Shown piece by piece: positions 42,534-42,902 of a stretch of DNA of 64,000 nt. The DNA is from Escherichia coli (GTDB lineage Bacteria; Pseudomonadota; Gammaproteobacteria; Enterobacterales; Enterobacteriaceae), in assembly GCF_024502345.1 (NCBI RefSeq), contig NZ_JALDNN010000001.1. The stretch is one strand, 5' to 3'. Below the pieces are notes generated by a model. That model was not told the DNA's origin, did no database searches, and worked only from the letters and a program-made list of their open reading frames with translations. The stretch's first letter is position 1, and each line of letters starts with the position of its first letter. The position numbers and the translations under genes are program-made.

Positions 42534-42902
42534 TCAAATTCTTTTTTTGTTTTCCTTATCACTACCTGAACAAATTGGCATAATTGAAGACAGTATACTT
42601 TCTTCTTTTTTCGCAATTAAAGCCGGTATATCTATATTATTACAATCAAGATTATCTCCCCACCAATACATAAATTTGTTCACTGCGGGTGTCATATCCT
42701 CTTTAACCTCATGATATTCATCATTCGTAAAAATAGAGGATATTAACTTCAAGTCATCAACTTTTATTTCCCTTACAACTATTATGAATATATCCTCTGT
42801 AGGAAATAAATCAGTTTCCTCCAGTGTAATATTTAATTTATCAAGTATCTCACTCATAAGTACATCAACCTCATTGAATGCTTTTTCATATTTACCCATC
42901 AT
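42534..42902 (-). CDS. Hypothetical small acidic protein (AT-rich orphan)
   Basis: Track ORF 42534..42935; likely start MMGKYEKAFNEV with GGAG RBS (about 122 aa); no recognisable family. Confidence 0.4.
   Translation of the reverse strand: MMGKYEKAFNEVDVLMSEILDKLNITLEETDLFPTEDIFIIVVREIKVDDLKLISSIFTNDEYHEVKEDMTPAVNKFMYWWGDNLDCNNIDIPALIAKKEESILSSIMPICSGSDKENKKRI

Follow-up and report, generated by a model that had tools for sequence, protein, structure and literature searches.

The leading region of a conjugative element is the side of the origin of transfer (oriT) opposite the relaxase genes, and in integrative elements defence genes cluster near oriT (bioRxiv 10.64898/2026.01.13.699239). For conjugative plasmids, the leading-region genes listed in that source are ArdA, KlcA/ArdB, PsiB and Ssb (Samuel et al. 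2024, as cited there). Defence systems on mobilizable elements at Escherichia coli hotspots are already known (PMC10121019), and anti-phage systems are likewise swapped beside a fixed landmark at the P4 psu-int and P2 hotspots (PMC9122126). The MOBQ oriT of the RSF1010/R1162 family (consensus NWACCNNTAAGTGCGCCCTYNN) is an inverted repeat followed by a conserved core (PMC3832669). Here we describe a small open reading frame (ORF) of the window, by which we mean the whole stretch of 64,000 nucleotides of E. coli DNA that was analysed (contig NZ_JALDNN010000001.1, assembly GCF_024502345.1). The ORF (42534-42902, minus strand) is almost beyond doubt a real gene, and very probably an accessory gene that belongs to the oriT-proximal slot in a family of mutS-targeting mobilizable islands. 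As an overall explanation we favour, with modest confidence, an optional origin-proximal accessory gene whose product would be a protein binder that serves the element around conjugative transfer.

Compared with the plasmid leading-region genes named in that source, the ORF is alike in being small, acidic and non-enzymatic, in lying beside a transfer-origin-like site, and in standing, in most lineages, among defence and anti-defence cargo on the far side from the relaxase operon. It differs in having no single-strand promoter hairpin, in its absence from plasmids, in its moderate charge and in its position on the relaxase side of the hairpin in one lineage; its product shares no sequence or fold similarity with any of the proteins listed there. 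As at the P4 and P2 hotspots and the E. coli hotspots with mobilizable elements, different anti-phage systems (here Gabija, TrlF, HerA/DUF4297, the sce7726 system, HNH and E1/E2/JAB) are exchanged next to a fixed landmark, with breakpoints exactly at gene ends. The element here, however, is a relaxase-bearing mobilizable island targeting mutS and not a phage satellite, and the ORF is an optional occupant rather than a universal flank.

The gene at 42534-42902 and its family

The frame is intact over 122 codons from an ATG at 42902 and over 121 from an ATG at 42899 (MMGKYEK...KENKKRI). A ribosome-binding site (RBS), AAGGAG (42907-42912, minus strand), lies 4 nt ahead of the first ATG and 7 nt ahead of the second, and the stretch that includes it, AAAAGGAG, was unchanged in 8 of 8 aligned upstream regions. 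The two ATGs stand in tandem in the window; seven aligned relatives have the second ATG only (start context CATAATGG in the relatives versus CATGATGG in the window), and therefore the real start is probably ATG 42899, which would give a product of 121 aa. In public data the exact protein was present in its 121-aa form on 244 contigs and in its 122-aa form on 24. These contigs were from E. coli and Salmonella, and Klebsiella was found among other members of the same cluster.

A promoter-like site was predicted at 42934-42963 (minus strand), made up of TTGACA (42963-42958), an 18-nt spacer and AATATT. It had 10 of 12 matches and the top score in the region, where the number of such sites was not above shuffled expectation. 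The TTGACA was unchanged in 8 of 8 aligned upstream regions. Among 17 family members compared, an exact TTGACA was located ~36-64 nt ahead of the ATG in 11, and five others had a one-base variant at a similar position. The ORF is a functional protein-coding gene with its own, predicted, promoter-like site. Its GC content is 0.30 versus 0.43-0.58 for the neighbouring insertion sequence (IS) and hsdM DNA, and the product has a pI of 4.45 and a net charge of -11 (25 Asp and Glu versus 14 Lys and Arg). A preliminary description of the window had reported a small, acidic, AT-rich ORF of about 122 aa with a good RBS in an IS-scarred region, between a nuclease-like module and a transposase fragment. 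All of this was confirmed, including the exact coordinates: the region is also rich in defence genes, and the ORF is flanked by a PD-(D/E)XK-like sce7726 gene and by an IS fragment.

A search with the single sequence returned 31 clusters at 67-99% identity from Salmonella, Klebsiella, Enterobacter, Cronobacter and E. coli, all annotated as hypothetical, and a profile search returned 66 clusters, all from Enterobacteriaceae and without any Pfam domain. An exhaustive HMMER scan of 1.84 billion representative proteins gave 16 matches, down to 33-49% identity. Across searches, members were 34-99% identical to the window protein and mostly about 120 aa long, the full-length ones mostly 118-130 aa. 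Residues V48, F77, W81, E100 and R121 were invariant in the family alignment, and every aligned member ended in x-[K/R/H/I]-R-[I/L]. The ORF was present in 33 of 5426 complete E. coli genomes, in all of them on the chromosome, and tblastn with the ORF found no match in 72,556 plasmids or 50,697 phage records. The family is narrow and restricted to chromosomal islands of Enterobacteriaceae. It is itself undescribed, and it fits the uncharacterised accessory genes of defence-carrying mobilizable islands. The earlier label of an orphan can be dropped, given 66 homologous clusters and a reproducible address beside the oriT-like hairpin of mutS-targeting islands.

It is hardly credible that the ORF is spurious or decaying, with no function in this genome. 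Such an explanation could point to the IS-scarred region and to several disrupted relatives: in L015 and L028 (L-numbers denote related loci fetched for comparison) an IS remnant of ~600 bp follows codon 65 (8004-8988 and 12210-13169, respectively), and L016 has an internal stop (8001-8360). Several relatives are inactivated and the gene is therefore dispensable in some hosts. Against a spurious ORF stand the intact frame, a protein identical across hundreds of contigs of several genera, the conserved RBS and promoter-like motif, a confident fold prediction, and pairwise dN/dS ratios of 0.14-0.47 (35 pairs with measurable dS; in a 36th pair dS was 0). The preliminary description would have taken an ORF with neither homologues nor expression evidence for a likely spurious one; homologues were found, and together with these ratios they go well beyond chance.

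The oriT-like hairpin and the mutS-targeting islands

Alignment of the intergenic DNA upstream of NikA-like genes yielded a hairpin motif that in the window is a two-hairpin, oriT-like element of 76 nt (43249-43324, minus strand), with the invariant 13-mer AGTTAGCCCTTGC as its 3' end (43260-43248). The 13-mer occurred once in the window, without mismatch, and in 36 of the 50 fetched loci. The predicted fold has two hairpins and 25 pairs, 8 of them with compensatory changes. Pairing was preserved in 94.8% of cells; the observed values were reached by 0 of 500 shuffles, and slid controls gave 34-62%. The upper stem covaries between lineages, its 5' and 3' arms being CTTTAAGAAGC and GCTTCTTAAAG in L020, CCAATGGATGC and GCATCTATTGG in L016, and CTGAACGAAGC and GCTTCGTTCAG in L001. 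The stem base and 3' core (TTAGCCCTTGC) hardly vary, even between loci whose adjacent proteins share only 35-45% identity. The hairpin lies 100-180 bp upstream of the NikA-like/relaxase operon in L001, L016, L023, L038 and L039, was found in 639 of 5426 complete E. coli genomes (12%), and had no match in Rfam.

We infer that this hairpin is the putative origin of transfer of the element. Its 3' core, AGAGTTAGCCCTT, agrees with the published MOBQ oriT consensus, TAAGTGCGCCCTY, at 9 of 13 positions (PMC3832669). The order of inverted repeat and conserved core is shared with MOBQ origins, and so is the location upstream of an operon for a NikA-like protein and a MobA/VirD2 relaxase. It differs from them in the sequence of the core, here AGTTAGCCCTT, in that this core is itself part of a long stem, in the presence of a second upstream hairpin, and in that the element has no plasmid counterpart.

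The ORF adjoins the oriT-like hairpin in the window and in most loci. It is located 278-349 bp downstream of the hairpin, away from the relaxase, in the window, L006, L012, L013, L026, L027, L029, L032, L040 and L043-50, and it stands behind a gajAB pair that follows the hairpin in L005, L014, L015 and L028. In the window, the region contained no Rfam family and no tandem repeat. In L011, L020-22 and L033 the ORF lies between NikA and the hairpin, which is found 60-120 bp past the ORF stop; the NikA-to-ORF intergenic region of L020 and L033 had no inverted repeat, the hairpin there being downstream of the ORF. The distance from the hairpin is 2.2-2.7 kb in L016 and L023. In RSF1010 and RP4, the inverted repeat is 5' of the nick on the transferred strand. 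Given that polarity and the definition of the leading region, the ORF would therefore be on the first-entering side in most lineages, though not in all.

The home element is seen in relatives. In L033 the order is mutS, an integrase (501 aa), a 196-aa ORF, a Replicase (PF03090), ORFs of 84, 137 and 214 aa, a MobA/VirD2 relaxase (408 aa), a NikA-like protein (141 aa), the ORF homologue, cargo (E1/E2/JAB and others) and a hemin-uptake locus, and the layouts of L020-22 and L023 are related to it. The element in L033 is bounded by a 25-nt direct repeat, ATACTGCTGCATCATCGGTGTGTGG (1670-1694 and 15278-15302), which duplicates the 5' end of mutS and codes for the MutS N-terminus (TPMMQQY). L001-4 encode a 404-aa relaxase (Pfam 2.6e-22; 56% identity to that of L020) and a 133-aa NikA-like protein, and gajA and gajB are inserted ahead of the ORF. 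A 156-aa minus-strand ORF of L005, considered as a further NikA-like relative, was not related. The attR core is found 173 bp past the ORF stop in L001-5, L012, L014, L015 and L028 (at 8542-8559 in L001-L005) and beyond downstream cargo in L026, L027 and L029. Membership in an att-bounded element with integrase and relaxase was thus observed in relatives (L033; L001-5), and the general layout of the element is attL, integrase, Rep, small ORFs, MobA/VirD2 relaxase, NikA-like protein, oriT-like double hairpin, variable cargo and attR. The backbone has a GC content of 0.27-0.44, in line with that of the ORF. In the window itself, no att core or relaxase was found and only the segment from hairpin to cargo is present. 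The window copy is a neighbourhood lifted out of its element and now in the leuX island, with tRNA-Leu(CAA) at 52282-52366, fim/uxu on one side and ahr/yjgR on the other.

In this layout the ORF is a variable, optional occupant of the cargo slot beside the oriT-like hairpin. A role as universal backbone gene was rejected, as related relaxases occur in 450 E. coli genomes and the ORF in 33. The neighbour of the ORF is Gabija in L001-5, L014, L015 and L028 (with the ORF ~120 bp after gajB on the same strand), and in other lineages it is hsdRSM with Kiwa, TrlF, HerA with DUF4297, HNH and SIR2, a pair of 1941-aa and 613-aa proteins, or the sce7726 system. In L051 the hairpin is followed by a ParB/recombinase element in place of the ORF. 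A neighbourhood analysis of homologues, as proposed in the preliminary description, thus gave a reproducible slot beside the hairpin but neighbours that change from locus to locus.

The 1941-aa/613-aa pair was found beside ORF homologues in three arrangements (L020, 8538-16201; L017, 1-7171; L034, 9504-17167). It had no PADLOC match and a faint AAA_14 signal, and the 1941-aa proteins of L017 and L020 are 51% identical. The pair may be an undescribed defence system.

The product and its proposed role

Scans of the ORF product against Pfam, NCBIfam, PADLOC (5027 models) and PHROGs gave no significant match, and a sequence-profile search of the PDB returned nothing below E 0.18. No enzymatic, membrane or nucleic-acid-binding signature was seen in Pfam, NCBIfam or the structural model. 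AlphaFold2 with the family alignment gave a model (pLDDT 85, pTM 0.76) of seven short helices (residues 6-107), no strand and a disordered tail (residues 108-122), for which no fold match was found among PDB and BFVD structures. A homodimer was not supported, since a tandem-fusion model with a paired alignment reached a pTM of 0.43 and had no confident interface. Neither sequence nor fold homology was found to characterised anti-defence or anti-restriction proteins (ArdA, Ocr, KlcA/ArdB, Gad1/Gad2), antitoxins or immunity proteins. The homology and structure searches called for at the outset therefore delivered homologues and a confident AlphaFold model, but the idea of an immunity or anti-defence protein gained no match to a known one.

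The family has a pI of 4.4-5.4 and a net charge of -4 to -12. In L033, the ORF homologue is the sole strongly acidic product (pI 4.9, the only one below 5), the backbone proteins having pI values of 8.9-10.1 except for the 196-aa ORF (pI 6.0). Two further identities were tried and rejected. A paralogue of another backbone protein of the element was not found (best E 0.08), and a ribbon-helix-helix relaxosome accessory of the NikA/MobC type does not fit the absence of a Pfam match, the seven helices without a strand and the acidic pI of the family. The element's own 133-141-aa proteins do match NikA-like proteins, weakly and below the Pfam cut-off.

Binding to another protein would be the most likely activity of the product because it is acidic and all-helical, has no DNA-binding or catalytic signature, gave no confident homodimer and carries the conserved R-[I/L] tail. 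The product would work for the element around conjugative transfer. That it is specifically a transfer-linked protein binder, as its position and composition suggest, is a tentative proposal. One option would be a factor for establishment or anti-defence, made from the origin side due to enter first; alternatively, the product might modulate proteins of the relaxosome, which are basic. The position beside the transfer origin hints at a general role in anti-defence or establishment, and a specifically anti-defence product is doubtful.

The tails of the family end in KKRI, KKRL, RRRL, LRRI or RHRI, a disordered basic cluster with an aliphatic last residue, and the R-[I/L] end might act as a docking peptide or as a degron of the ClpX type. 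The MuA-type ClpX signal RRKKAI (PMC8138137, Table 1) is alike in its disorder, basic cluster and aliphatic end; its penultimate residue is Ala, whereas the ORF family has an invariant Arg, and this is a resemblance only. In a further-reaching version, to which we give little credence, the family would be a new class of transfer-linked effectors with a helical fold unmatched among the searched structures, neutralising defence or tuning the relaxosome by protein binding. The R-[I/L] tail might then be a docking peptide, a secretion signal or a ClpX degron; it also recalls the basic signals at the C-terminus of certain type IV secretion substrates. In the same version, the ORF and the 76-nt hairpin would form a minimal origin-plus-cargo unit, which could explain the presence of a 99.8% identical block in E. 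coli and of the identical protein in Salmonella and Klebsiella.

Several observations weigh against a transfer-linked accessory gene. In L020-22, L033 and L011 the ORF and the relaxase are on the same side of the hairpin, and in L016 and L023 the ORF is 2.2-2.7 kb off; a strictly leading-side role therefore does not hold for all lineages. An Frpo-like single-strand promoter fold was looked for in the DNA upstream of the ORF and not found (z -1.7, +0.7), and the hairpin-then-nick polarity would make the transferred strand the sense strand, so that early expression from single-stranded DNA is unlikely. The ORF is missing from 95% of the E. coli islands with the hairpin and from the mobilizable elements L037-L039, and therefore transfer cannot require it. 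The family is often broken, being split by an IS in L015 and L028, interrupted by a stop in L016 and truncated in many clusters. The family's net charge is much weaker than in classic DNA mimics. The hairpin itself had no match in 72,556 plasmids, and it could be a bidirectional terminator.

A gene with no transfer role, either a stand-alone defence gene or other cargo in the defence hotspot of the element, is another reading, and we consider it rather unlikely. It would agree with the location of the ORF in a variable slot and not in the backbone (33 E. coli genomes with the ORF versus 639 with the hairpin), with the defence systems that directly adjoin the ORF in every context examined, and with the reported tendency of defence genes to cluster near oriT in integrative elements (bioRxiv 10.64898/2026.01.13.699239). 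However, none of the 5027 PADLOC models matched the product, and it shows no enzymatic, membrane or nucleic-acid-binding signature. To our knowledge, single-gene defence proteins of 120 aa without an effector domain are unusual.

Taken alone the gene is minor: it adds another small, uncharacterised protein to a defence island. It led to the covarying oriT-like hairpin and to the mutS-inserting mobilizable islands that swap anti-phage systems beside it. If an establishment or anti-defence role were true, the idea of leading-region anti-defence would extend from plasmids to chromosomal mobilizable islands, and a new fold would be added to the leading-region repertoire.

Gabija, the sce7726 system and other neighbours

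The preliminary description had the ORF sitting alone; it is instead embedded in a conserved multi-part block of ~4.9 kb that was seen again at 99.8% identity in other genomes and has an edge at 43326. In transcription order, the block holds the oriT-like element, a gajB relic, the ORF and a sce7726/sce7725(/RES) system that in the window IS3 has split and IS1 has truncated.

The relic (43025-43113, minus strand) is the 3' end of gajB, the gene for the UvrD-type helicase of Gabija, and matched GajB residues 549-583 by tblastn (80% identity, E 1.5e-13). It comprises 35 codons, and the block common to Gabija-bearing loci begins at 43113 (blastn). When the window was aligned with Klebsiella L005, 43326-43114 corresponded to L005 3588-3798 and 43113-42533 to L005 7784-8370. 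The alignment indicates that the window is missing ~4 kb relative to L005, gajA and most of gajB having been deleted. In the loci of relatives, intact GajA and GajB matched PADLOC models at 2e-272 and 5.5e-200. The deletion junction, GCTTCGATTGTGTG|CATCACGAGC, is common to the window, Salmonella L006, Citrobacter youngae L012 and Rahnella L013, and its presence in all three genera therefore argues for one deletion event that spread horizontally. The ORF was valuable here as a landmark, as it exposed the deleted Gabija system.

The ORF could on this basis be a third, accessory gene of a Gabija subtype, a regulator or self-immunity gene left over after gajAB was deleted. The short distance and shared strand after gajB in the eight loci listed above would suit such a gene, as would the inclusion of the last ~90 bp of gajB in the DNA block common to the contexts. 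We nevertheless regard it as very unlikely. Homologues at 34-57% identity occur in loci without any Gabija, and the same subtype (gajB 72% identical in DNA) is also found at different sites where the ORF is lacking. In eight E. coli genomes and in L015, an IS-split ORF stands next to intact gajA and gajB. The ORF also has its own conserved promoter-like site, and purifying selection persists after the Gabija deletion, the dN/dS of the window versus Salmonella L006 being 0.14 with Gabija absent from both. The ORF is not an obligate part of Gabija and does not always co-occur with gajA and gajB. The GajC of the literature was also considered as an identity for the ORF and rejected; that name belongs to an unrelated, MazF-like protein which takes the place of GajA.

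Homology to the Gabija-context loci stops exactly at the ORF stop. It is followed by an AT-rich spacer of 393 bp (42141-42533) with no Rfam family, tandem repeat or convincing ORF, which is common only to loci of the same arrangement. Next comes an intact sce7726-family gene (41089-41991, minus strand; 300 aa), which is P4 cII-like (NCBIfam sce7726_fam 4.3e-52; PADLOC 'cll' 7.5e-20). Its PD-(D/E)XK signal is weak (Pfam PDDEXK_3 at 0.091), and its orthologues carry the precomputed Pfam annotation Phage_P4_cII. By these matches the gene is related to the cII component of gop-beta-cII, a locus of P4 shown experimentally to be anti-phage and toxin-antitoxin-like (PMC9122126; bioRxiv 10.1101/2023.04.06.535777). 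The sce7725-family gene (38973-41082, minus strand) is split into 40636-41082 and 38973-39428, which cover positions 1-133 and 141-287 of NCBIfam sce7725_fam, by an IS3 copy (39416-40673) that is 99.8% identical to annotated IS3 copies in L037. An IS1 copy (38210-38977; InsA/InsB ORFs, blastn to the IS1 of L050) cuts the system, and the third gene, a RES-domain gene of 341 aa in intact relatives, is absent from the window.

A fourth gene of this sce7726/sce7725/RES system, acting as regulator, sensor or antitoxin in a relative of gop-beta-cII, is another conceivable identity for the ORF, and an improbable one. The identical 121-aa protein was indexed in 422 collection blocks, the spacer and the three-gene system follow the ORF on the same strand in 7 of 8 places listed, and the sce7726 member matches a component of an anti-phage, toxin-antitoxin-like locus. 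In contrast, E. coli MS 115-1 carries a 99% identical system but lacks the ORF, with homology starting at 42140, 149 bp upstream of sce7726, and most family members have other neighbours. A junction exactly at the ORF stop is what would be expected of two modules joined by recombination. In L050, a near-identical E. coli relative, IS1 (at 42107) took out the system and the ORF was kept. The ORF is no obligate component of this system, the two being found apart and not in a shared operon.

An antitoxin, or an immunity protein of a polymorphic toxin, defined by operonic pairing was rejected as well, as each lineage has different immediate neighbours and a promoter-like site precedes the ORF itself. 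An immunity or anti-defence function by way of the neighbours, which the preliminary description had raised, gained no direct support: intact Gabija tolerates a disrupted ORF, and both Gabija and the sce7726 system occur without it.

On the other side of the oriT-like element, an ORF at 43761-43967 (minus strand) is a fragment of an IS with an rve-type transposase and lies between that element and hsdM. A Pfam scan of the fragment gave no match at E<0.001, and in RefSeq the corresponding position of L027, L028, L040 and L051 holds an annotated 'integrase core domain' pseudogene. The hsdM gene (type I restriction-modification; 44128-45254, plus strand) is a pseudogene in two fragments (Pfam HsdM_N 9.5e-14, N6_Mtase 6.5e-70), and an intact 515-aa hsdM stands at the corresponding place in L006 and L043. 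The hsdM fragments are adjoined by an autotransporter of 1062 aa (45318-48506, plus strand) with Pertactin, autochaperone and beta-barrel domains and a run of about eleven PDN tripeptide repeats. The related leuX island of E. coli MS 115-1 (L037, 3962-8332) has three consecutive integrase-like genes, resembling a GInt-like cassette, followed by an IS3-disrupted relaxase, Kiwa and an intact sce7726/sce7725/RES system.

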